Positions 51,797 through 62,928 of a DNA stretch of 64,000 nt are shown here, one piece after another. A program made the translations under genes and the position numbers. Below the pieces are notes generated by a model. That model searched no databases, was not told where the DNA came from, and saw nothing but the letters and a program-made list of their open reading frames with translations. Numbering within the stretch: position 1 is the first letter of the stretch; every line of letters begins with the position of its first letter. Source of the DNA: Gemmatimonadales bacterium (GTDB lineage: Bacteria > Gemmatimonadota > Gemmatimonadetes > Gemmatimonadales > GWC2-71-9); the NCBI GenBank assembly GCA_019637315.1, contig JAHBVU010000011.1, forward strand, positions 7,242 to 71,241, in the 5' to 3' direction.

Positions 51797-52186
51797 TTAG
51801 GCGCCGATGTGGGATCGATACGCAGCTGCGTCGAGCAGCCCGTCGAGCTCTGCCGGGTTCGACGCTTTGAGCCGAATCATCCAACCATCGGAGAACGGCG
51901 TCCGGTTGACGAGGGCCGGATCGGTGTCCAGCGCGCCGTTGACCTCGACGACCTCACCGGCAACCGGCGAGTACAGGTCGGAAACGGCTTTGACAGCTTC
52001 GATCGTGCCGAAGGCCTGATGGGTCGAAAAGGTGTCGCCCACTTTGGGCAGATTGACGAAGACGACGTCACCCAGCTCGCCTTGTGCGTATTCAGTGATA
52101 CCGATTTCGATCACGCCGGCCTCGCCCGTCTGGCGAATCCATTCGTGTTCGGCGGTATAGCGGAGGTCGTCCGGGACGTTGGCCAC
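51797..52186 (-). CDS. gcvH: glycine cleavage system H protein (lipoyl carrier)
   Basis: 129 aa with the lipoyl-lysine context …FGTIEAVKAVSDLYSPV…. Confidence 0.95.
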   Translation of the reverse strand: MANVPDDLRYTAEHEWIRQTGEAGVIEIGITEYAQGELGDVVFVNLPKVGDTFSTHQAFGTIEAVKAVSDLYSPVAGEVVEVNGALDTDPALVNRTPFSDGWMIRLKASNPAELDGLLDAAAYRSHIGA

Positions 52187-52241: not shown

Positions 52242-52856
52242 TCAAGCCGAGAGACCGTTGGCCCGCCGGATCAGGTCGGTCCAGACGGCGCGCGCGCGAG
52301 CTTCGAGGTCGTCGAGGCTGCCGTCGTTGTCGATTACGTAGGTGGCGCGGGCGCGTTTTTCCTCGGATGGAATCTGCGCCTCGATCATCGCTTGCGCGGT
52401 TTCCGGGTCGAGGCCGCGGATCCGTTCCATCCGGGCGCGACGGGTTTCGATCGGAGCATCGACCAGCACCACCGCATCGAAGCTCGCGGGGTCGAGTACT
52501 TCGAAGAGCAGCGGAATGTCTTGGACCACGATTGGAGTGCCGGCCTGGCGAGCCTCGGCCATGATGCCGTCGCGGCGGGCCCGTACGGCGGGGTGGGTAA
52601 TGGCGTTGAGCTTTTTGCGCGCCGCCGGGTCGTTGAAGATCAAGGCGCGGAGCACCCCGCGGTCGAGGGTGCCGTCCGCCGCCAGAATCTCCCGGCCGAA
52701 CTCCTCCACCATGGCCTTGAACACCGCCGTGCCAGGCTGCTGCAGCTCGTGGACGATGGCATCGGCATCGATGACGACGGCGCCCCACTCGGCAAACATT
52801 CGGGCCACTGACGACTTGCCCGAGGCGACATTGCCGGTGAGGCCGACGCTGAGCAT
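52242..52856 (-). CDS. coaE: dephospho-CoA kinase
   Basis: Walker A GLTGNVASGKSS and CoaE collinearity. Confidence 0.92.
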   Translation of the reverse strand: MLSVGLTGNVASGKSSVARMFAEWGAVVIDADAIVHELQQPGTAVFKAMVEEFGREILAADGTLDRGVLRALIFNDPAARKKLNAITHPAVRARRDGIMAEARQAGTPIVVQDIPLLFEVLDPASFDAVVLVDAPIETRRARMERIRGLDPETAQAMIEAQIPSEEKRARATYVIDNDGSLDDLEARARAVWTDLIRRANGLSA

Positions 52857-52858
52857 GC

Positions 52859-53464
52859 CTACAGAATCCTGGTCTGGTCTTCGTCCTGCCTGGGCACCCG
52901 ATGGCAGCGGCGGCAGCGCGCTTCGTACGCTTCGGTGCCGCCCACCATGATCGTGGGCGAGTCCCAGCGCGCGGGCCGACCGCCGATGAGCCGCTGGTTG
53001 CGACAGGCGAGGTCGCCGCAGACGACACAGATGGCCTGCAGCTTGGTGACGTCTTCGGCCACCGCCATCAGCGGTCCCATTTGGCCGAAAGGCTGCCCGC
53101 GAAAATCAGTATCTGTTCCGGCCAGGATGACCCGAACGCCGCGCTCGGCCAGCGAGGTGGCCACGGCGGTCACTCCATGGTCGAGGAACTGTGCCTCGTC
53201 GATCGCGACGACTTCGGTATCGGGCCGTACCTGCCGAAAAATCTCGGCGGCCGAGTCGATCGGAACGGCCTCGATGTCGGCGCCGTTATGACTCGAGACG
53301 CGGGCCACGCCGCCGTAGCGGTCGTCGAGGTGGCTCTTGAAGACCTGGACGCGGCGGCGGGCAATCAACGCCCGCCGCACCCGCCGGATCAGCTCTTCGC
53401 TCTTGCCGCTGAACATGACACCGGCAATGACCTCGATGGTGCCGGTACGCGAGGCGTGATACAT
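52859..53464 (-). CDS. tdk: thymidine kinase
   Basis: The start is taken at the ATG at 53464 ([26 protein letters not shown]; P-loop). C-terminal zinc ribbon CVVCG…CRRCH. Confidence 0.9.
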
Positions 53465-53525
53465 CCGCGCTTTCCTGGGGTTCGGACGAGAAGGAGTCCG
53501 ACGATAGATGACCAGCCGGATCGGG

Positions 53526-55031
53526 TCAAGCCGGTCGTCGCGGGGGACGGCTGCCGTCTCGGGGCTTCCGGTCTCGCGGCGCCCGGTCCCGCGATTCGCG
53601 ATCCCGTGAATCACGATCGCGAGAGTCGCTCTCGCGGCTCCGGTCGAGTCGCGCCGCCAGGCGGCGTCCCTTGTACTCGTGGCCGGCGAGCTTCTCGGCG
53701 GCGTTGATCGCGTCGAACTCGCTCGTCATTTCCACGAGTGAGAAGCCATCGCGGAGTTCCAGCCGACCAAGCGTGTCTCGCTTGACGCCGGCGCCGAGGA
53801 CCACGCTGAGCAGCTCGGCCGGGGTTGCACCGTCTTTGCGACCGAGATTGATCCAGACCTTGGGATGGGGCGACGTCAGCGGCGCGCTTGTGGCTGCGGG
53901 CGCGGGTGCTCGGGTCCGGGCTTCGGTCCAGAGGCTCTGGACGGCCACCGCCACCTCGGCGCCGCTCCAGCGGTCCAGCAGCGGGGCGACGGTGGCGTAA
54001 GCTCCCCGATCGATCGGGCCTTCCAGTCGGGAGCGGATGGCGCGCCGATCTTCCTGAATGGCTCGCTCGGCCTGGTCGAGGCCGCCGGGCAGCGTCAGTG
54101 GGTCGATCCGCCCGGCAATCCGGGCAAAGTAGCGCTCGGCGCCCGGGGCAATCAGCACGACGCTCGTGTCGAGGGCGGCCTGGGCGAGCAGTTCCGGCGG
54201 GGGGGCATCGAAAAAGATCGTGGCCGGTCCGGCGGGAATGGCGCCGGCCACCGGTCGGGCGGTGACACCATGCCCGGCGAGTCGTTCGGTCAGCGCCTCG
54301 TGCGAGTCGGCCGACGCGGTCCAGACTTCGACCTCGTCCAGGTTGAGCAGGTCGGCGGCGCGGGCCACGGCGGCGAGCCGGTCATCCCAGCGGACCGCGG
54401 CACCGCGGACCCGGCCGAGCTGCGCCGGCTGGGTCGGGTTGGCCAGCGGCCCCATGGTCGGTGCGCGCCAAGCGTAGCGTTCGGCGAAGGTGGCGGTCCC
54501 TGCCGGGTCGGTCGTCACGACGACCCGCTGGGTTTCCTTCGGCAGGTCGGCAAAGATCGGCACGAAGCCTTCGTCGGACAGCTCCAGTTCAGGCCAGATG
54601 ATGACCACGCCCCGGATCCCATCGGTGCGCAGCTGGCTGCGGCGGAGCAGTTCGGTGGTGGTGGCGAGGGACAGGACCAGCGCGGCAACGCGGCTGGAGG
54701 CGAGGTGGTGCGCGGCCCGACTGGGATTCGGCGCGACGGCGACCGTGATGCCGGCTTGTCGACCGGCCAGCGCAACGGCCTGGCCCCAGGCTTCGAGGGA
54801 CGCGTCCGGGGCGATGACCAGGACCGGTCCCGCCTCGGCCGATTCGGCCGGGCGCCCGAGCAGGGCGGCAAGGACGGGAAGGGTGTAGGCCGGGGCCGGC
54901 GGGGCAGCCAAGACGAGGCTGTTGCCGCGGGCGGCTACGGCGGCGGCGGATGCTACCCCAAAGGCTTCCAGCGACCCGCTCACCGGCGGGTTGGTCAGTT
55001 CGACGTCGGACACGGGTACCTCGATTGTCAA
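53526..55031 (-). CDS. DEAD-box-helicase-like protein with degenerate ATPase/helicase motifs and an intact DbpA-type C-terminal RNA-binding domain plus an RD/RS-rich tail (putative pseudo-helicase)
   Basis: Collinear with DEAD-box proteins, but every ATPase/helicase motif is substituted: Walker A AxTGSGKT becomes [14 protein letters not shown] becomes [13 protein letters not shown] becomes [12 protein letters not shown] becomes WPEL, SAT becomes TTD, and HRIGRTGR is absent. The C-terminus …[47 protein letters not shown]… matches the DbpA/DeaD RNA-binding domain, followed by [14 protein letters not shown]…. Confidence 0.65.
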
Positions 55032-55160: not shown

Positions 55161-56387
55161 GTGACGAAGGTGCTTCGCCTCCCCGATCCTGTGTCCAGCA
55201 ATCTGACCCACATCAAAGGTTCCGAAACGGTCGCCATCAACGCCGAGGCGCGCCGACTCCGTGCGTTGGGCAAGGACGTGGTCGACCTGAGCGTCGGGGA
55301 GCCTGACTTCGATACGCCGGCGCCGGTGGCGCAGGCGGGAATCCAGGCGATTCAGAAGGGGCAGACCCGGTATCCGCCCAACGTCGGCATTCCGGAACTA
55401 CGGAACGCCATGGCCACCCATTTGAGCCAGCTCTCGGGAGGCCGCGCGGTCGATCCGGATCGCTTCGTGATCAGCTCGGGGTCGAAGCAATCGCTCTTCA
55501 ACGCCTGCTTTTCGCTGTTCGGGCCGAAAGACAAGGTCCTGATTCCGGCGCCGGCCTGGGTCTCGTATCCCCAGATCGTGCACCTCTCGCGGGCCGAGCC
55601 GGTGATGGTGCCGGGCGAAGTCGAGTGGGGGCTCAAGGTCAGCGTCAAAGATCTCGATCGGCACTTCGACAAGCTCGTGCGCGGCATCATTCTCTGCTCG
55701 CCGTGCAATCCGACCGGGGCGGTCTACACCCTGTCAGAACTTCGTGCCATCGGCGACTGGGCCCGGAAGCACAACATCTGGGTCATCAGCGACGAGATCT
55801 ACCGCCGGATCTACTACGGGCCGGGGGCGGCTCCGTCGTTCTTCGACCTGCCGGACGAGTATCTCGAGAAGACCGTCGTCATCTACGGCGCCAGCAAAGC
55901 GTATGCGATGACCGGCTGGCGGATCGGCGCGGCCTACGCGCCGCCGACCATCGTCAAGGCCATGGCCAACCTGCAGTCGCACACGACGACCGGGGCCAAT
56001 CATCCCGCCCAGGTAGCGGCGGCAGCGGCCTTTTCGGATCCCAAGGTCGAGCAGGAAGTCGTCAAGATGACGGCCGCATTTCGTCGGCGGCGCGATCGGC
56101 TGGTCGAGCGGTTTCGGACCGAAGCGCCCGGCATCGAGTTCGTCGAGCCGCTGGGTGCGTTCTACCTGTTCTTCCGGGTCGACGGCATTCGCCAGAAGCC
56201 GGTGGTGACCGGTACCAAGTTCTGCGAACGCCTGCTCACCGAGCACGGTGTGGCGGCGGTGCCGGGCGCCGCGTTCGGCGACGACCGTTGGATTCGGCTC
56301 TCGTACGCCGCGTCGGACAAGGATCTCGAGAAGGCGATCCATCGGTTGATGCGCTGCATCGCGGAGTTCGAAGCGGGCGGGGTGTGA
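55161..56387 (+). CDS. pyridoxal-phosphate-dependent aminotransferase, class I (aspartate aminotransferase-like)
   Basis: GTG start. …SGSKQS…, PLP-lysine context …YGASKAYAMTGWRIG…, and AAT-I fold collinearity. Confidence 0.9.
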   Translation: MTKVLRLPDPVSSNLTHIKGSETVAINAEARRLRALGKDVVDLSVGEPDFDTPAPVAQAGIQAIQKGQTRYPPNVGIPELRNAMATHLSQLSGGRAVDPDRFVISSGSKQSLFNACFSLFGPKDKVLIPAPAWVSYPQIVHLSRAEPVMVPGEVEWGLKVSVKDLDRHFDKLVRGIILCSPCNPTGAVYTLSELRAIGDWARKHNIWVISDEIYRRIYYGPGAAPSFFDLPDEYLEKTVVIYGASKAYAMTGWRIGAAYAPPTIVKAMANLQSHTTTGANHPAQVAAAAAFSDPKVEQEVVKMTAAFRRRRDRLVERFRTEAPGIEFVEPLGAFYLFFRVDGIRQKPVVTGTKFCERLLTEHGVAAVPGAAFGDDRWIRLSYAASDKDLEKAIHRLMRCIAEFEAGGV

Positions 56388-57313
56388 GTACGCGGCTCCT
56401 CTTTGCACGAGTGCGCCGGGCGATTGAGGGCACCCCCGGCGCCGTGGCGGCCTCGACCATGCCGCCGGCTGTCGAGGGGCGCCCCGATGTCTACCGCCAG
56501 ATCCAGTCGACCGTCGTCGAAGGGTCGACTCTTGCCGTGCATCCGGTGACCCGGAGCCCGTGCCCTGAGCCGATTGCTTTTCTCGACGGCACGCAGCGCT
56601 ACGAAGTCGTCAGTTATGTCGGCACTTCGCCGGTGGTGGCGGCCCTGATTGGCGCCGCGGTCCGCCTCCGGGTCGACGGGCAGTTCCGCACGGTGGCGCA
56701 CGACGGCGGCCGGCTGCTGATCGGTGCGCCGAATGCGCTGGCTGCCTTTGCCGATCGGCTGCCGGATTTTGGCCGGGTCGAGCTCGATCTCGACGGCCCG
56801 GTTCATCCCCTCGAAGAACTCGAGAAGGCGCACCGAGCGGTCGATGACTACCGCAGCGCGCTGGAGTGGCGGGTCGCTGCGCAGTTTCGCCGTGACGATC
56901 CGTCCTGGCTCGTCGTCGACGGTGTGTTACCCCATTTCGATCGGCTCGGGTCTGATCCGCGCGTCATCGGGGTGTCGAAAAGCCACGCGACGCTGCCCTT
57001 CGACGATCCCGAGACCAGTCACCTGTACTTGTCGCTGCCGCAGGGGCACCGGACCAGTGTGTTCCGCCCCGCGACGCCCCACGCGGCACCGGTCGATTCC
57101 TGGGCGCTTCGACTCTGGGCGCACGAGGGCAAAGATCTTTTCCACGGCCTGGTGCGCATCGAAGTCGCGGCCCGCACCGAGCGGGCTGAGCACGCCGAGC
57201 GCGTCTCGGGCTGGCTCCTGGCCGAGCGGGCCCCGATTGCTCGGCCCGACGCGCGGTGGGACCGCTTGCTGTACGGCGTGGCCCAGGTCGAACGCCATTT
57301 GAGGGCCCGATGA
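56384..57313 (+). CDS. NurA-like 5'-3' nuclease (RNase-H-like fold), partner of the HerA-like ATPase
   Basis: GTG start overlapping the aspC stop (GTGA). ~310 aa. Candidate catalytic motifs …IAFLDGTQRYE… (DGS/T-type Asp motif) and …RVIGVSKSHA…. Its stop overlaps the HerA-like start (ATGA). The call rests mainly on size, motifs and position immediately upstream of herA-sbcD-sbcC. Confidence 0.55.
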   Translation: MSTRLLFARVRRAIEGTPGAVAASTMPPAVEGRPDVYRQIQSTVVEGSTLAVHPVTRSPCPEPIAFLDGTQRYEVVSYVGTSPVVAALIGAAVRLRVDGQFRTVAHDGGRLLIGAPNALAAFADRLPDFGRVELDLDGPVHPLEELEKAHRAVDDYRSALEWRVAAQFRRDDPSWLVVDGVLPHFDRLGSDPRVIGVSKSHATLPFDDPETSHLYLSLPQGHRTSVFRPATPHAAPVDSWALRLWAHEGKDLFHGLVRIEVAARTERAEHAERVSGWLLAERAPIARPDARWDRLLYGVAQVERHLRAR

Positions 57314-59223
57314 TCGGACGTGTCGTCGCGACGGAGCTCAAACCGAGTACGCCGCATCAGTTCCTGTTTTGGACCGCGCGAGACACGGCCGTAGGCATCG
57401 GTTCCATCGTCCGGGTCGAGTCGCCCGGGCGATCAGTCTATGGCGTCGTGACGGATGCGTTTGCCTATTCGGACCTGGCAACCCCGATGGACGCGGTCTA
57501 CGGCGCCGACGGCGATCCCAACAGCCCGGTCGAGCCCAGCGAGCGGAGTGAGATCCGCCTGTTCCAGACCGCCGTGCTGCGCCACGAGCCGGAGGAGCCA
57601 CTGCAGGCCGTGCCGCTCGGTGAGGTGCACCTTGCCTCCGACGAAGATGTGGCCTTTGCGCTCAGGATGGACGCCTACATCGGCGGCGACAAGCCGACCG
57701 GCGTGCCCGTCGGCGTCTATGCCGCAGGCGGGCTCGAGGCTCCCGTGTACCTCGACGCCGACTTTCTGCTTGGCCCGGAAGCCGCGCATCTCAACATTAC
57801 GGGGGTGTCCGGTCTGGCCACGAAGACTTCGGCGGTCGAGTTCTTTCTGACCTCGATTTTTCAGCGGTTTCCGCCGCACAAAGGGCGGGTCGCGGCGCTC
57901 TGCTTCAACGTCAAAGGCCCTGACCTGCTGTTTCTCGATCGGCAGGGCACCCTGAACGACCAGGATCGCCACCTGTATGACCGGCTCGGTCTCGAGCCGC
58001 GGCCCTTCGATCGGGTGCGCTACTTTGCGCCGTTCAAGAATGACGGCGTCAATCTCAACACCCTGCGCACCAATCCCGAGCTGATTCCGACCGAGCCGCT
58101 CGTCTGGGGCCTTCGCGAGGTACTGGACTACACCGAAGTGCTGCTCAACCGCGACGACATCGATGCCAAGGCCGACGGCTTCATCGATTTCCTGGCGGAG
58201 CGGGTCGTCGGCAAAGAGTTTAATGACGAGGTGTCGGGGCAGACCTTTGCGGTGCGCAGCTTTGCCGAGCTCGAAGACTTCTTCAAGGCGATCTTCAACT
58301 TTCTCGAAACGACTCGGGGCAGCGAGATCTGGCGCACGCATCATGTTGCCACCATTCGGAAAATCCGCAATCGGCTTGGCAATATCAGCACCCGGTCCAA
58401 GGGCTTGGTGACCGACAACGGTGAGGTCAATGATTTGCCGTGGGGCGAGTTCGGCGACCGGACCGTCTATGTCGTGGACGTCGCGGGTCTCGATCCGCTG
58501 GCGCAGGATCTCGTCTTTGCGCGGATCGTGTCCAAGCTGCGCGAACATCTCGAGCGTCGGGATCTTGGCGTCGAGCACGTCGCGGTCTTCGTCGACGAGC
58601 TCAACAAGTATGCTCCGCAGGAAGGGCACGACACCTACGTTCGGAAGATGTTGCTCGACCTTTCCGAGCGGGGTCGCTATCTCGGCCTGGTGCTCTTCTC
58701 GGCGCAGCAGTTTCGCTCCCAGGTGCACAAGCGGGTCGTCGGCAATGCGGGTACGGCGGTCTACGGCCGGCTCGATGCGGATGAGCTCGCTACGCCGGGG
58801 TACGGGATTCTGTCGCCGGCCATCAAGGCCAAGCTGGCGGCGCTGCCCAAGGGCGAGCTGATGATCCGTCACCCGCATTTTACCCAGCCCATCTTTCTTC
58901 GTTTTCCGCGGCCGTCGGTACTGTCGGGGCGGGAAGGCATCGATCGCTATCCGCCGGAACCCGAGGTGCCGTTCGAGGATGCCGTGGTGCGCCGGCTCCG
59001 GGCCCTCGAACCAGGCTTGCCCGGCAATCGGATCAAGGACCTGATTGCCGGCCGAGCTCAGGATGACGTGGTGCGGGCGCTCCACGCCACCATCCGCAAC
59101 CGGCCAGGCGATGTGGTCGCCTTCTTCGTCAAATGCCTCGGCCGCGAGGTTCGAACCCGGTCGGTGGCACCGACCAACGGCGGGGTTACCCGCCTCAAGA
59201 GCGTCGACGACCCCTACGCCTGA
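57310..59223 (+). CDS. HerA-like hexameric ATPase/helicase (FtsK-HerA superfamily, DUF87-type) with an N-terminal HAS-barrel
   Basis: N-terminus MIGRVVATELKPSTPHQFLFWTARDTAVGIGSIVRVE…SVYGVVTDAF is a HAS-barrel. Walker B …VAVFVDELNKYAP… and a sensor region …LGLVLFSAQQFRSQV… are present. The expected P-loop position reads HLNITGVSGLATKTSAV, which is not a canonical GxxxxGK[ST]. Confidence 0.75.
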   Translation: MIGRVVATELKPSTPHQFLFWTARDTAVGIGSIVRVESPGRSVYGVVTDAFAYSDLATPMDAVYGADGDPNSPVEPSERSEIRLFQTAVLRHEPEEPLQAVPLGEVHLASDEDVAFALRMDAYIGGDKPTGVPVGVYAAGGLEAPVYLDADFLLGPEAAHLNITGVSGLATKTSAVEFFLTSIFQRFPPHKGRVAALCFNVKGPDLLFLDRQGTLNDQDRHLYDRLGLEPRPFDRVRYFAPFKNDGVNLNTLRTNPELIPTEPLVWGLREVLDYTEVLLNRDDIDAKADGFIDFLAERVVGKEFNDEVSGQTFAVRSFAELEDFFKAIFNFLETTRGSEIWRTHHVATIRKIRNRLGNISTRSKGLVTDNGEVNDLPWGEFGDRTVYVVDVAGLDPLAQDLVFARIVSKLREHLERRDLGVEHVAVFVDELNKYAPQEGHDTYVRKMLLDLSERGRYLGLVLFSAQQFRSQVHKRVVGNAGTAVYGRLDADELATPGYGILSPAIKAKLAALPKGELMIRHPHFTQPIFLRFPRPSVLSGREGIDRYPPEPEVPFEDAVVRRLRALEPGLPGNRIKDLIAGRAQDDVVRALHATIRNRPGDVVAFFVKCLGREVRTRSVAPTNGGVTRLKSVDDPYA

Positions 59224-59320
59224 CCTGTGGTGGAGTCGCCCCCGCACGAACCCGCCGGTCGCCGACCTCGAACCCCTCGGACGAGGTGACCGGGGCGCGA
59301 CTCTTGGGCTAGATTAGACC

Positions 59321-60499
59321 GTGCTGCTCGCTCACCTTGCCGATCTGCATCTCGGCTACCGCCAGTATTACCGTCAGACCGCCGCGGGCATCAACCAGCG
59401 CGAGGCCGACGTCGCGCGCGCGTTCGTCCAGGCGGTCGATCAAGTCATTGCCAAGCAGCCTGACGTCATTGTCGTCGCGGGCGACCTGTTCCACGCGGTG
59501 CGCCCGACCAACCAGGCCATCATTCACTGCTTCCGGCAGTTCCAGCGGATTCGAGAGGCGCTTCCCGCTGCAAAGGTCCTGATCGCGGCCGGCAACCACG
59601 ACACGCCTCGGGCCACCGAAACCGGTTCGATCCTCAAGCTCTTTGCCGGTCTCGGGATCGAGGTGGCGACGGACGACGCGGCCATCGTGCGGTATCCCGA
59701 CCTCGATCTGGCGGTCAAGCTGGTGCCGCACGCCGCGCTGGTAGCCGACGACCGGCCGCGTCTCGATCCCGAGGGTGACGAGCGCTACCAGGTTCTGGTG
59801 CTCCACGGCGACACCCCCGATCTCGACCCGCTCGACCGCTGGTGGGCCGAGCCGGGCGGGGCGGCGGTCGATCCGAGCGAGTTTGCCGACCCCCGTTGGA
59901 ACTACGTCGCGCTCGGTCACTATCACGTCATGCTGAAGGTTGGCCCGCACGCCTGGTATTCGGGGGCGCTCGACTATGTCACCCCGAACCCCTGGGGCGA
60001 ACTGGCGAAGCAGAAGGCGCACAAGGTTCCGGCCAAAGGGTGGCTCCTGGTCGACCTCGAAACCCGCCAAGTCATGCCGCAGTACCTCGAGTCAGCCAGG
60101 CGGCTGATCGACCTGCCACCGATCGAGGCGCGGGACCTCGCCGCGTCGGAGATCGACCGAGCTATCCAGGAGAGGCTGGCCAGTATCCGGGGCGGGTATG
60201 CCGAGCAGCTGGTTCGCCTGGTTGTGCGGGATGTGCCCCGGTATGTCGCTCGCGAGCTGGATCATGCGGCGATTCGCACCGCCAAGGCCACCGCGCTCCA
60301 TTTCCGTCTCGATCTGCGGCGACCGGAAGTGCATCGGACGGTCGGGGTTGGTGCGCCTGGAGCGCGCCAGACGCTGACGGACGTGCTGAGGGGCTTCCTG
60401 GCTCGGCGCCCTTTGCCTGAGCGGGTCGACCGCGATGCCTTCGTGACTCGCGGGACGGCCATGCTCGATGCGGTTTCGGCGGCGGCGTCGGAGGGCTGA
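59321..60499 (+). CDS. sbcD: Mre11/SbcD-family DNA-repair nuclease (calcineurin-like phosphoesterase)
   Basis: GTG start. Phosphoesterase motifs I DLHLG, II GDLFH, III GNHD, IV LHGD, V GHYH. Confidence 0.9.
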   Translation: MLLAHLADLHLGYRQYYRQTAAGINQREADVARAFVQAVDQVIAKQPDVIVVAGDLFHAVRPTNQAIIHCFRQFQRIREALPAAKVLIAAGNHDTPRATETGSILKLFAGLGIEVATDDAAIVRYPDLDLAVKLVPHAALVADDRPRLDPEGDERYQVLVLHGDTPDLDPLDRWWAEPGGAAVDPSEFADPRWNYVALGHYHVMLKVGPHAWYSGALDYVTPNPWGELAKQKAHKVPAKGWLLVDLETRQVMPQYLESARRLIDLPPIEARDLAASEIDRAIQERLASIRGGYAEQLVRLVVRDVPRYVARELDHAAIRTAKATALHFRLDLRRPEVHRTVGVGAPGARQTLTDVLRGFLARRPLPERVDRDAFVTRGTAMLDAVSAAASEG

Positions 60500-62928
60500 T
60501 GCAGATCCGGCGCCTCCGTCTGCTCAACTTCCGGCAGCATGCCGACACCACGCTCGCGTTCGAGTCCGGGCTGACCGGGATCATCGGACCGAACGGCGCC
60601 GGCAAGTCCACCCTGCTCGAGGCGGTGGCCTGGGCGATGTACGGTACCCAGGCGGCCCGCGGCACCCGCGACAGCATCCGGCGTCGCAATGCACCGCCGC
60701 GGTCCCGGGTCGAGGTCGAGCTCGAGATTGCCATCGGAGCCCAGGTCTATCGGGTGGTGCGGTCGCTGCAGACGGCGGCATTGTACCAGGACGGGGGTCC
60801 CTCGCCGATTGCCAACAGCGGCGCGGCCGTCACCGACAAGATCACCCGCTTGCTGGGGATGACGCGGGACGAATTCTTCAACACCTACTTCACGGGTCAG
60901 AAGGAACTGGCGATCATGGCGTCGATGTCGGCGCCGGAGCGGGCCAAGTTCCTGAGCCGGGTGCTGGGCTACGAACGTCTGGCCATGGTTCAGCTCAAGT
61001 TGCGCGACGAGCGAACCGGTCTCCGGGGAGCGTTAGGCGTGGCCGAGTCTGCGCTGGGCGACCTGGCGGAGCTCGACCGCGAGGCGGCGGAGGTCGAAGC
61101 GCGGGTCGCCGCCGCGGATACCGCGCTGGGCACAGCCGGCGCCCGACGCGAGACGGCCGATGCCGTGCTGGCCTCGCTGGCGCCGGAATGGGAAGAGGCT
61201 CAGCGCCGTCGTGATGAAGTCGCCGCGATCCAGACCGACCTGAGCATTGCCGAGCATGCGGCAGTCGAGGCCAAGCGTGCCTTCGAAGCAATCGACCTCG
61301 ATATGGCGGATGCCATTGCCGCCAGCACCAAGCGGGAAGAGCTGGCCCCTCGTCTGGCGGATTGGGACGCGCTGGTGGCCCGACGTGACGGGCTCGAACA
61401 GGCTGCGTCGGCGTTTTCCGAGCGGCGGGCCATGGATGCTCAGGCGGCTGAGGTTCGCAAGCTCCTGGCCGGTCAGGAGACGCGGCTGAGCGAACTGCCC
61501 GATCAGGCCCGCCTCGATGCGGCTCGGGCGGAGCTGGCGATTCTGCAGGAGAGCGCCCACCAGGCTGCGCACACGCTCGAAGAGCAGCGGACCGAGTGGG
61601 TCCGCGAAAAGCAGGACGCCGAGACGATGCGGAAAGGGCTGCTCAACGAATACGAAGAAGTGGCGGAGCAGAAAGCGCGTCTCGAGGCGGCCGGCGCAGC
61701 CGGGATCTGCCCGACCTGCGGTAAGCCGCTCGGTGCGGAGTATGGCGGCGTGCTCGACGATCTGGAAGGGCGCCTGGCCGACATCCGCGGCGACGGCAAG
61801 CACTATCGGGCCCGGATCGATCAGCTCTCGAGCGAGCCCGAGGGTGTTGTGGCGGCCAAACGGGTGCTGGAGCAGGCCGAGGCCGATCTCAAACGTCTGA
61901 CCGCGGGAGTCGGGCGGATGACGGAGGCGGTGGCGGAGCGGGTCCGGATCGAGGCGGCTCTGGTCGCGCAGCGGGAACGGCTGGCCGACCTCGATGCCCG
62001 TCTCGCGGCGACGCCGTCGTCGTACGACGAAACCGAACACGTTCGTGTGCGCGCTCGTGTTGCCGAGCTGACGCCGCTGCGGGATGAACTGATGCGGATC
62101 GCGGCCCGGGCGGATCGTGCCCCCGAGCTGCTCCAGAAGGCTACTGCGGCCGAGCAGCACTTGACGCGGCTCGAAGCAACTGCTCAGGCGCTGCGGGACA
62201 AGCTCTCCGCGCTGGGATGGTCCGTCGAGGCGTTTGCCCTGCTCAAAGAGACGTTCCTGGCAGCCGAGCGCGAGGCGCGTGACGCCCACCTGGCTTTGGT
62301 ACGGGCGCAAGCCGAGCATGCCGCTGCGCTGGAGCAGCGAGCCTCGCTGTCACGGCGGCGGGAGGAGCGTGATCGGCGTCTTGCCGAGGCCGAGCGTTTG
62401 CGGAGCGACCTGGCCATGAACCAGGAGTTGGATCGGGCCTTCAGTGAGCTGCGGGATGACCTCAATGCGGCCTTGCGTCCCGACCTGGCGGATGCGGCCT
62501 CGACCCTGCTGCGAGATCTCACCAATGGCCGGTACACGGACCTGGAACTGGACGAGGACTACCTCGCCACCATCGTGGACGACGGCGAGCCCAAACAGGT
62601 CATTTCAGGCGGTGAAGAGGATGTCACCAACCTGGCCTTGCGGCTCGCCATCAGTCAGATGATTGCGGAGCGGGCGGGGCAACCGTTTTCGCTGCTGATC
62701 CTCGATGAGGTGTTTGGTTCGCTCGATGAGGAGCGTCGCAACGCCGTGATGGATCTGCTGCGCGGCCTGGCCGATCGGTTCCCCCAAGTGATTCTGATTA
62801 CGCATATCGAGTCGGTGCGCGACAGCTTTGATCGGATTGTTCGGATCGACTACGATGTCGAGTCCGGGGTTGCCTCCGCGCGGGAGGAAGATCCGCAGCG
62901 AGGCGGGATGTCGCATGCCGCGGCGTGA
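60499..62928 (+). CDS. sbcC: Rad50/SbcC-family SMC-like ATPase with a CxxC zinc hook
   Basis: The ATG overlaps the sbcD stop (TGATG). N-terminal Walker A GPNGAGKST, a ~600-aa coiled coil with the central hook CPTCGKPL, and a C-terminal signature/Walker B/D-loop …LLILDEVFGSLDEER…. Confidence 0.9.
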   Translation: MQIRRLRLLNFRQHADTTLAFESGLTGIIGPNGAGKSTLLEAVAWAMYGTQAARGTRDSIRRRNAPPRSRVEVELEIAIGAQVYRVVRSLQTAALYQDGGPSPIANSGAAVTDKITRLLGMTRDEFFNTYFTGQKELAIMASMSAPERAKFLSRVLGYERLAMVQLKLRDERTGLRGALGVAESALGDLAELDREAAEVEARVAAADTALGTAGARRETADAVLASLAPEWEEAQRRRDEVAAIQTDLSIAEHAAVEAKRAFEAIDLDMADAIAASTKREELAPRLADWDALVARRDGLEQAASAFSERRAMDAQAAEVRKLLAGQETRLSELPDQARLDAARAELAILQESAHQAAHTLEEQRTEWVREKQDAETMRKGLLNEYEEVAEQKARLEAAGAAGICPTCGKPLGAEYGGVLDDLEGRLADIRGDGKHYRARIDQLSSEPEGVVAAKRVLEQAEADLKRLTAGVGRMTEAVAERVRIEAALVAQRERLADLDARLAATPSSYDETEHVRVRARVAELTPLRDELMRIAARADRAPELLQKATAAEQHLTRLEATAQALRDKLSALGWSVEAFALLKETFLAAEREARDAHLALVRAQAEHAAALEQRASLSRRREERDRRLAEAERLRSDLAMNQELDRAFSELRDDLNAALRPDLADAASTLLRDLTNGRYTDLELDEDYLATIVDDGEPKQVISGGEEDVTNLALRLAISQMIAERAGQPFSLLILDEVFGSLDEERRNAVMDLLRGLADRFPQVILITHIESVRDSFDRIVRIDYDVESGVASAREEDPQRGGMSHAAA

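Follow-up and report, generated by a model that had tools for sequence, protein, structure and literature searches.

The DEAD-box proteins form the largest family of helicases, and what defines how they work is an RNA clamp driven by ATP. Can a bacterium keep the scaffold of such an enzyme once the residues that handle ATP are gone? An open reading frame (ORF) in the window, the 64,000-nucleotide stretch of Gemmatimonadales DNA analyzed here, raises this question. A first-pass annotation had read it as a probable pseudo-helicase: a DEAD-box scaffold with its ATP-binding and hydrolysis motifs replaced, followed by a conserved DbpA-type RNA-binding domain (RBD) and an RD/RS-rich tail. The ORF (53526..55031, minus strand) is intact and counts 501 amino acids from a TTG in a mechanical ORF list. 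The true start, however, is probably the GTG at 55013, giving 495 amino acids. We prefer this codon because a GAGG lies 5 nt upstream of it and homologues start MSDVE there, at residue 7 of the longer version. Residues are numbered throughout as in the 501-amino-acid version, from the TTG at 55031.

53526..55013, minus strand: coding sequence of the putative pseudo-helicase, 495 amino acids from the GTG at 55013; stop codon at 53526-53528
55019..55022, minus strand: Shine-Dalgarno-like GAGG, read in the sequence 5 nt upstream of the GTG; putative function

The strings quoted in the annotation could all be located: APPAPAYT at residues 43-50, WPEL at 146-149, TTD at 173-175, an RBD stretch ending in EMTSE at 392-438, and the tail string at 471-484. 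HRIGRTGR is missing from the protein, as had been stated.

Fold and catalytic motifs

In a Pfam search, the protein matches DbpA (PF03880) at residues 392-461 (E = 1.6e-8; 34.9 bits versus a cutoff of 25.6, a score among the lowest in the family), while DEAD (PF00270) and Helicase_C (PF00271) are both missing even at E ≤ 10. Among 33 family members tested against Pfam, DEAD is found at E ≤ 0.01 in six, one of them above the cutoff, and Helicase_C in none; the distant orthologue P0128 exceeds the DEAD cutoff (30.5 bits versus 26). For the N-terminal part, searching NCBIfam and PDB sequences with the single sequence was uninformative. The search with DEAD, Helicase_C, and DbpA models that the annotation had suggested returned DbpA only, and inspection of the motifs found them degenerate.

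Structure prediction and profile comparison speak for a DEAD-box protein over the full length. The AlphaFold model has a pLDDT of 80, and about 90 over residues 23-310. Its top 50 PDB matches in Foldseek are all DEAD-box helicases, the best being DbpA (7pli; E = 1e-15 across some 500 columns); CshA, Hera, eIF4A3, and DDX6 come next. When aligned to genuine DeaD-type helicases with hhalign, a family profile (A1) gave a probability of 99.5% (E = 1e-22, 464 columns) and a broader family profile (A3) one of 100% (E = 7.6e-46, 523 columns). Searching with A3 brings up, at E values of 1e-45 to 1e-30, true helicases that carry DEAD, Helicase_C, DeaD_dimer, and DbpA domains, and an HMM made from true helicases matches this ORF (E = 2e-10). 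The model predicts two tandem RecA-like domains with DEAD-box topology, the second of them minus one alpha-beta unit. Checking whether the N-terminal 390 amino acids are unrelated to RecA domains did not overturn the proposed DEAD-box scaffold, which is upheld by the fold, the full-length profile homology, and the motif map.

54432..54965, minus strand: RecA1-like domain, residues 23-200 (pLDDT about 90, Foldseek, hhalign, dN/dS about 0.15)
54882..54905, minus strand: motif I (P-loop) remnant, A43-PPAPAY-T50, replacing AQTGTGKT (hhalign, family alignments)
54585..54596, minus strand: motif II remnant, W146-P-E-L149, replacing D-E-A-D (HMM alignment to Dbp5, hhalign, alignments)
54507..54515, minus strand: motif III remnant, T173-T-D175, replacing SAT (alignments; family consensus TAD)
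54099..54419, minus strand: reduced RecA2-like domain, residues 205-311 (hhalign of A1 and A3 against A4, secondary structure of the model, dN/dS 0.08-0.17)

Within RecA1, motifs I, Ia, Ib, II, and III are degenerate, and the Q motif is lost, as it falls in a 7-residue gap (hhalign). Tyr49 stands in motif I where Lys is expected, with no GK[ST] left, and P44 is invariant family-wide, both in the family alignments and in a motif table of 150 representatives. W146 of motif II is nearly invariant in the family; distant orthologues have WADD or WADE there. R105, R169, E184, R185, R218, and R329 also count as family-invariant. RecA2 retains the motif IV strand (VWTAS) and a VVNFDxP-like strand (TIFFDAP). 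According to hhalign, a deletion of about 32 residues takes out its QxxR and motif V, and another of 6 to 8 residues takes out motif VI (HRIGRTGR). The claim of replaced motifs thus stands for I, II, and III, but V and VI have been deleted rather than substituted. GxGKT at the motif I position and HRxGRxxR are each found in 0 of the 150 best representatives, and orthologues in related genomes do share the degenerate motifs in this table, as the annotation had asked. A regular expression, A....GK[ST], suggested P-loops in 18 family members. We rejected them because the matches lie near residue 90, in the strand after motif Ia (consensus GKxAA) and not in motif I, and are not conserved in this protein.

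Could the product still be an active ATPase or helicase that uses noncanonical residues? Beside the Trp of the old motif II the family conserves an acidic residue (WPE or WAD), Thr50 occupies the P-loop Thr position, and the whole core is under purifying selection. However, the Gly-Lys of the P-loop, the Q motif, both DEAD carboxylates in their canonical places, SAT, motif V, and the arginine fingers of motif VI are all absent, two of these by deletion; RecA2 is short of its alpha-beta unit, and the Pfam helicase models fail even at a permissive threshold. We know of no DEAD-box protein that hydrolyzes ATP without these elements, and consider activity highly improbable. The motif loss suggests that the protein would neither bind nor hydrolyze ATP, nor form the RNA clamp that real DEAD-box proteins build with ATP. 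Points against our reading are the formal possibility that ATP binds at an unconventional site and the low DbpA-domain score of this protein.

Most of the RNA-contact motifs of the core are lost as well: PTRELA of motif Ia has become PDASL, neither GG nor the GR of Ib is left, and IVa and V are deleted. RNA binding therefore does not explain the strong constraint on the core, which points to some other partner or ligand.

Selection, distribution, and neighborhood

A simple explanation for the lost motifs would be a pseudogene in decay, or an ORF that arose by chance in GC-rich DNA. Indeed, the genome has about 66% GC, and numerous long ORFs that are spurious lie across the locus. But intact full-length orthologues occur in hundreds of assemblies, down to 26% identity and in the same genomic slot; dN/dS is 0.11-0.18 at a dS of about 0.5; and the predicted structure is confident. 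In the face of this, decay or chance is practically excluded. The order aminotransferase, gene, thymidine kinase (tdk) is kept at 88%, 48%, and 26% identity. Because the dN/dS is low and the slot is the same even at 26% identity, loss of the catalytic motifs is, by these sequence measures, not decay, and the gene is kept by selection. The annotation had argued as much, and dN/dS and synteny agree with it. It had also set a conserved RBD against the core, and this contrast did not survive: mean identity within the close family is 57% for RecA1, 51% for RecA2, 64% for the helical domain that follows them, and 54% for the RBD. By domain, dN/dS is 0.15 for RecA1, 0.08-0.17 for RecA2, 0-0.024 for the helical domain, and 0.03-0.15 for the RBD.

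We found 28 close homologues, and 2,105 clusters (50% identity) at E ≤ 1e-3. Gemmatimonadota host 12 of the 12 species-genome loci, from a genome scan run with A1, which reaches the close subgroup only (A3, without a conserved stretch, was unsuitable). They also host each organism-named match, the taxonomy of the distant subgroups being taken from source names. As judged from these sequences, the gene is single copy, syntenic, and fast evolving in Gemmatimonadota. It seems to represent a family of bacterial pseudo-helicases that spans the phylum and is not so described in the searchable literature, and this family is a candidate lineage marker for Gemmatimonadota.

The neighbors are those first noted. 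Pfam places Tdk, CoaE, and GcvH downstream in the same orientation and recognizes a class I/II aminotransferase in the divergent gene.

52859..53464, minus strand: thymidine kinase gene (tdk), directly downstream (Pfam TK, E = 7e-49; synteny)

Across the phylum the gene stays paired with tdk, overlapping it by 4 nt in Gemmatimonadaceae, and the two are therefore probably cotranscribed; no terminator-like site was found between them. We take tdk as context and not as a proven functional partner, and the reading favored below does not account for the conserved operon link. No Rfam families or terminators were found flanking the gene. A single weak promoter-like site lies at the stop codon and was not counted as evidence. 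A functional link to the divergent block of aminotransferase, HerA-like, and SbcCD genes was rejected, adjacency being the sole evidence for it.

RNA-binding domain, helical domain, and likely function

If the core has lost ATP, what could the rest of the protein do? Three parts follow RecA2.

53913..54083, minus strand: three-helix domain, residues 317-373, aligning to the dimerization domain (DD) of DeaD/CshA/Hera-type helicases
53637..53864, minus strand: DbpA-type RBD with RRM fold, residues 390-465 (Pfam PF03880)
53529..53636, minus strand: disordered basic RD/RS-rich C-terminal tail, residues 466-501, net charge +5 (pLDDT <50, alignment, charge count)

G422 of the RBD is invariant and lies in L-G-R-L, the counterpart of the guanine-reading phi-G-x-phi of Hera and YxiN. 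The domain carries basic patches, GRKDG and KGRR, and superposes on the RBD-rRNA complex of YxiN (3moj) at 1.9 Å over 73 residues. The RD/RS tail is present here as the annotation had it but is not a family feature, being seen only in the three closest homologues; distant orthologues carry different R/G-rich tails (P0128 and P0138).

The superposition on YxiN, the conserved guanine-reading backbone, and E. coli DbpA as the best full-length structural match would fit an assembly factor specific for hairpin 92 of 23S rRNA, a role that the annotation had proposed along with rRNA chaperone or decoy: an ATP-free placeholder or chaperone at the peptidyl-transferase-center region of the nascent 50S subunit. 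According to one study, a helicase-dead DbpA mutant in E. coli leads to accumulation of a 45S large-subunit intermediate (PMC4911913), which shows that dead DbpA can still engage the maturing ribosome. However, DeaD-type helicases match the RBD profile of the family better (34.7 bits for P0211 and 33.8 for P0206) than E. coli DbpA does (22.7), and monomeric DbpA and YxiN have no counterpart of the roughly 60-residue helical domain. DbpA probably tops the Foldseek list as one of few full-length structures with core plus RBD. Moreover, the RBD folds of Hera and YxiN are similar and their RNA elements differ, so fold does not predict the target. We consider dedication to hairpin 92 quite unlikely.

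The helical domain is the most constrained part of the protein. The Pfam model DeaD_dimer (PF25399) finds no match in this protein itself; it is above the cutoff in family member P0135 and just below it in P0116. An HMM of the DD only was not significant against true helicases. A shared DD could nonetheless make the protein a regulatory partner of an active DeaD/CshA-type helicase, either in a heterodimer or by docking through the inert core. Such an asymmetric dimer would target, tether, or inhibit the active enzyme, as in pseudokinase-kinase pairs and in the role proposed for Utp25. The helical domain lines up with the DD of genuine DeaD-type helicases and barely changes, and the core is under selection despite its lost RNA and ATP motifs, suggesting a protein interface. 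In Hera, the DD joins two subunits whose cores face each other (PMC11850223, PMC2632915), and the Utp25 pseudohelicase has been proposed as a helicase cofactor (PMC9539457). Yet there is no active helicase with a DD within this 64-kb window and no helicase gene beside the gene in five syntenic loci. Calling the protein a paralogue, as the annotation had, likewise presumes an active copy elsewhere in its genome. The DD assignment is weak for this protein, and homodimerization accounts for the same data. Partnership with an active helicase strikes us as unlikely.

The reading we favor, and hold to be likely, is that the gene product is a catalytically dead descendant of a DeaD/CshA/Hera-type DEAD-box helicase that binds RNA independently of ATP. 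Of the original proposal of a dead, RNA-binding DEAD-box protein, the scaffold and the motif loss are upheld, and RNA binding is predicted. The RRM domain, with its L-G-x-L guanine-reading backbone and its two basic patches, would hold RNA together with the basic tail; the helical domain probably dimerizes the protein; and the constrained inert core may be a structural or protein-docking module. We infer that RNA binding without ATP, by way of the RRM domain and tail and possibly as a dimer, is its most likely function; the most plausible role would be that of a placeholder, a tether, or a chaperone for structured RNA, rRNA for instance. A bolder version, in our opinion rather unlikely as a whole, has the family as an ancient, phylum-wide pseudo-helicase, the first bacterial one, with its core repurposed for docking or allostery. 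Either paired with itself or in an asymmetric heterodimer with an active helicase of DeaD type, it would tether specific structured RNAs without ATP through the RRM, and its function might be linked to that of the cotranscribed tdk. If true, RNA metabolism in bacteria would have its own equivalent of regulation by pseudokinases.

Comparison with known systems

A whole bacterial phylum seems, from its sequences, to keep a DEAD-box scaffold stripped of catalysis yet with an RNA-binding domain. This would be a natural experiment on what an ATP-free DEAD-box core can do, for example scaffolding, tethering, or partnering with active helicases. Annotation of the family differs, with JGI pipelines calling it "ATP-dependent RNA helicase DeaD" and NCBI giving the DbpA domain only, and its recognition corrects a widespread misannotation as DeaD. 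It also accounts for an aside, in a 2011 survey, on a DbpA domain outside DEAD/Helicase_C proteins in Gemmatimonas aurantiaca.

By family profile, the nearest true helicases are those of the DeaD/CsdA, CshA, and Hera types. They share the domain order RecA1, RecA2, helical domain, RRM-type RBD, and basic tail, and their RBD is likewise an RRM with phi-G-x-phi. Unlike them, the present protein has lost Q, I, II, VI, and the coupling motif III, with IVa, V, and VI deleted and a RecA2 about 40 residues shorter. Most RNA contacts of the core are gone, Pfam DEAD and Helicase_C fail, and the family has conserved motifs of its own, PP(A/S)P, WPE, and ERYAWRAP. DbpA and YxiN resemble it in the best structural match (7pli, E = 1e-15), in the shared PF03880, and in the RBD that superposes on the YxiN RBD-RNA complex. 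However, both are active and monomeric and have no helical domain between RecA2 and RBD, where this protein has about 57 residues (317-373) and a linker, and its RBD sequence is closer to DeaD-type proteins than to DbpA and YxiN.

We found no bacterial DEAD-box pseudohelicase in the searchable literature. At the time of the Utp25 paper, pseudohelicases had been proposed in just two cases, Utp25 of yeast and PriA of Deinococcus (PMC9539457). PriA of D. radiodurans is a bacterial SF2 helicase relative with degenerate motifs (PMC4504706); it has negligible ATP hydrolysis and unwinding and binds nucleic acid and partner proteins (PMC9539457). Utp25/Def, a pseudohelicase of the SSU processome, is eukaryotic and of independent origin and has no DbpA/RRM or dimerization domain. 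Its motifs Q, Ia, IV, V, and VI survive in part (PMC9539457); the present protein has lost V and VI to deletions. Experimentally, Utp25 is essential and its motifs are dispensable (PMC9539457). The likeness lies in a two-RecA DEAD-box fold with vestigial motifs, kept by selection, with RNA or protein binding as the presumed mode of action instead of ATP turnover (PMC9539457). Of the marks by which Utp25 was judged a pseudohelicase (PMC9539457), a retained fold with vestigial motifs and a gene maintained by selection are both found in the Gemmatimonadota family, and a lack of ATPase and unwinding activity is predicted from its motif loss.

Gene model and helicase fold

The 501-aa reading frame proposed in the first-pass annotation is present at 53526..55031 on the minus strand, opening with TTG in a mechanical ORF list, and all peptide strings quoted from it were found. 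Since GAGG lies 5 nt upstream of a GTG at 55013 (read from the sequence), and homologue gene calls start with MSDVE at the equivalent position, the real start is probably this GTG, for a predicted product of 495 aa; residue numbers follow the 501-aa numbering. The 18 nt from TTG to GTG (55014-55031, minus strand) read LTIE(V/G)P in five relatives (loci L011-L014 and L019; 57% to 88% identity). Nucleotide-level conservation thus extends over the 5′ leader, GAGG included, which may be a ribosome-binding or regulatory sequence, not coding sequence. With the genome at about 66% GC and the locus overlain by spurious ORFs, the reality of the gene rests on homologues and selection, not on ORF length.

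The sole Pfam domain of the protein is the DbpA-type RNA-binding domain (RBD; PF03880, residues 392-461, E = 1.6e-8; 34.9 bits, cutoff 25.6). Of the three Pfam models proposed for checking, this one matched, but DEAD and Helicase_C gave nothing even at E ≤ 10; NCBIfam and single-sequence PDB searches added nothing further. An AlphaFold model from 28 homologues (mean pLDDT 80) is confident at residues 23-310 and 390-465. When it was used as a Foldseek query against the PDB, all of the top 50 matches were DEAD-box helicases, led by full-length E. coli DbpA (7pli, E = 1e-15, about 500 columns) and followed by CshA, Hera, eIF4A-III, DDX6, and Dbp5. A family profile matched Dbp5 weakly and collinearly (E = 0.013), with WPEL over DEAD and TAD over SAT, a single DbpA sequence at E = 4.6e-5, and five E. 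coli DEAD-box proteins at E = 7e-4. With a broadened profile, E values of 1e-45 to 1e-30 were reached against genuine helicases that combine DEAD, Helicase_C, DeaD_dimer, and DbpA domains. Aligned by hhalign to genuine DeaD-type helicases, the close family scored 99.5% probability (E = 1e-22, 464 columns) and the broad family 100% (E = 7.6e-46, 523 columns), and an HMM built from true helicases only found the ORF at E = 2e-10. Finally, the distant orthologue P0128, which aligns over its full length to the family profile (about E = 1e-46), exceeds the Pfam DEAD cutoff (30.5 bits versus 26), and the family member P0135 exceeds that for DeaD_dimer, the dimerization domain (DD) of DeaD/CshA/Hera-type helicases (24 bits versus 23). 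Three independent lines, fold, profile homology, and transitivity, agree that the N-terminal 390 aa are a helicase core, as the first reading had it. An unrelated Rossmann-like fold is excluded by the same three lines. We consider it highly probable that the protein is a pseudo-helicase of DeaD/CshA/Hera descent.

Loss of catalytic motifs under selection

Motif states were taken from profile alignments to true helicases, and secondary structure from the AlphaFold model.

Helicase motifs and their state in the pseudo-helicase
Q motif (GYExPTPIQ), near residue 25: absent, 7-residue gap
Motif I (AQTGTGKT), A43-PPAPAY-T50: Lys replaced by Tyr49, Gly residues by Pro/Ala
Motif Ia (PTRELA): A74-PDASL
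GG: gone
Motif Ib (TPGR): S120-LAT; in the wider family, TP retained, GR gone
Motif II (DEAD): W146-P-E-L149
Motif III (SAT): T173-T-D175
Motif IV strand: retained, V236-WTAS
IVa (QxxR) and motif V (TDVAARGLD), between residues 267 and 268: gone via a deletion of about 32 residues
VVNFDxP strand: retained, T271-IFFDAP
Motif VI (HRIGRTGRAG), near residue 285: gone via a 6-8 residue deletion

An alternative alignment of motif I has a 4-residue shortening, and neither alignment contains GK[ST]. Because of the IVa/V and VI deletions, RecA2 lacks one alpha-beta unit. The replacements APPAPAYT, WPEL, and TTD noted at first reading are thus borne out, and HRIGRTGR is not merely missing, it is deleted outright. 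All motif elements for ATP binding, Mg2+ coordination, gamma-phosphate sensing, and coupling of hydrolysis to RNA are gone, as are most core residues that contact the RNA backbone. Judged by the established DEAD-box mechanism, the protein would be incapable of acting as an ATP-driven RNA clamp. A cryptic active ATPase is very unlikely, given the motif deletions. Neither GxGKT at the motif I position nor HRxGRxxR occurs in any of the 150 best family representatives.

Among close orthologues with unsaturated dS of about 0.5, Nei-Gojobori dN/dS is 0.11-0.18 overall: 0.15 in RecA1, 0.08-0.17 in RecA2, 0-0.024 in the helical domain, and 0.03-0.15 in the RBD. Mean identity in the close family is 57%, 51%, 64%, and 54%, respectively. 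The RBD is conserved, as first noted, but no more so than the degenerate core when close family members are compared. Family-specific signatures stand in place of the helicase motifs (ARGNxLVLAAPP(S/A)PAY, RAAHHL, ELLRRS, WPELELSDE, a 10-residue string, TADP, and ERYAWRAP), and P44, R185, A190, R329, G397, and E434 are invariant down to 25-30% identity. The idea of a decaying pseudogene is refuted by these values, in keeping with the original view that the gene is selected. The core is under strong constraint though both its ATP and RNA motifs are gone. With core and DD so constrained, an attractive though less likely alternative is that the protein would pair with, or regulate, an active helicase carrying a DD.

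One gene across a phylum

Of 1.84 billion cluster representatives, the family profile matched 2,105 at E ≤ 1e-3; 681 of these reached E ≤ 1e-10 and 229 reached E ≤ 1e-30, and many matches ran end to end.

Sub-groups of the family, by remnants of motifs I and II
PPxPAY/WPE: that of the protein under study
CPPAGW/WPE: about 437 aa
VLPHDW/WADD: sub-group c, Gemmatimonadaceae orthologues, 500-640 aa with R/G-rich tails

Degeneration has gone less far in sub-group c, where motif II reads WADD or WADE, motif Ib retains GTP, and the Pfam DEAD model can still pick up a match. The tails of this sub-group (for example, in P0128 and P0138) are low-complexity, R/G/D-rich, and up to about 150 residues long. 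Within one orthologous gene, motifs appear to have been lost by degrees.

Genes around the pseudo-helicase
51797-52186, minus: GcvH (Pfam)
52242-52856, minus: dephospho-CoA kinase, coaE (Pfam)
52859-53464, minus: thymidine kinase, tdk (Pfam)
53526..55031, minus: pseudo-helicase
55161-56387, plus: class I/II aminotransferase, divergent (Pfam)
56384-57313, plus: 309-aa ORF, no Pfam match
57310-59223, plus: 637-aa ORF, perhaps HerA-like; HAS-barrel just below the Pfam cutoff (E = 7.8e-5)
59321-60499, plus: SbcD-like phosphoesterase
60499-62928, plus: SbcC/Rad50-like ATPase

Pfam confirmed the neighbors named at first reading (tdk, coaE, gcvH, and the divergent aminotransferase). The order divergent aminotransferase, pseudo-helicase, tdk is a conserved slot, continued in the gene's own sub-group by coaE, gcvH, gcvP, and lplA. 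It is held in relatives at 88% and 48% identity, in the family member P0202, and in P0328 of sub-group c (26% identity, E = 5e-17), where the stop and the tdk start overlap by 4 nt (L023, 9581-9584, a Gemmatimonadaceae genome). In species-representative genomes, 12 of 12 family loci are in Gemmatimonadota MAGs, and all organism-named matches in the distant sub-groups are Gemmatimonadaceae or Gemmatimonadetes. NCBI names the family "DbpA RNA binding domain-containing protein" and JGI "ATP-dependent RNA helicase DeaD." The gene is single copy in the 64-kb window, where an HMM from true helicases found no canonical DEAD-box gene. Distribution and slot together argue that the family is a single, fast-evolving orthologous gene present phylum-wide, not a set of paralogues.

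The pseudo-helicase and tdk are neighbors across the phylum. Their gap in the window is 61 nt (53464-53526, minus strand), with no terminator-like site. A sigma-70-like match (TTGACC, 17 nt, TATCGT; 9/12) at 53501-53529 on the minus strand overlaps the pseudo-helicase stop codon just upstream of tdk; it is the one match in 2 kb, versus 0.1 expected in shuffles, and could be an internal tdk-coaE promoter or chance. Downstream of the aminotransferase, the block at 56384-62928 (plus strand) is packed, with overlapping stops and starts, and is conserved at loci L001, L003, L023, and L025. Its layout seems similar to that of NurA-HerA-Mre11-Rad50 in archaea and Deinococcus; by this likeness, the 309-aa ORF might be a NurA-like nuclease.

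RNA binding and known pseudohelicases

In Hera/YxiN-type proteins, the RBD is the chief determinant of ATP-free RNA binding, and an Arg-rich C-terminal tail touches double-stranded RNA. Hera and YxiN share a single contact, in which main-chain amides of a phi-G-x-phi element read a guanine. In the family alignment this element is kept as L421-G422-R-L424, with G422 invariant; the basic GRKDG and KGRRLxAR segments are kept too. The disordered RD/RS tail (net charge +5) is present as described, but only the three nearest relatives share it; distant orthologues end in R/G-rich tails of other kinds. Element, basic segments, and charged tail make RNA binding through RBD and tail the best-supported predicted activity. 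A placeholder in ribosome assembly specific for hairpin 92, as suggested, is a possible alternative but not a specifically supported one. Tentatively, we propose that this pseudo-helicase of DeaD/CshA/Hera descent would bind RNA independently of ATP, possibly as a dimer, its inert core being kept as a structural or docking module.

A 2011 survey, in a passage giving the data as not shown, names three Treponema species and Gemmatimonas aurantiaca as the only cases in which the DbpA RBD occurs without belonging to a DEAD/Helicase_C protein, in small genes made up chiefly of this domain (PMC3093544). Our results suggest that the G. aurantiaca case may be this degenerate full-length helicase; the Treponema genes might belong to a separate family that degenerated independently, or encode an RBD that truly stands alone.

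Few pseudohelicases have been described, and our literature searches found no bacterial DEAD-box example. For specialists in DEAD-box proteins and pseudoenzymes, the family is noteworthy and experimentally tractable, though alone it opens no long-standing question. Yeast Utp25 is a DEAD-box-fold protein whose vestigial motifs are dispensable (PMC9539457), and D. radiodurans PriA is the bacterial example among DNA helicases (PMC4504706). Compared with these, the present family is an uncharacterized DEAD-box-derived pseudoenzyme restricted to one phylum.
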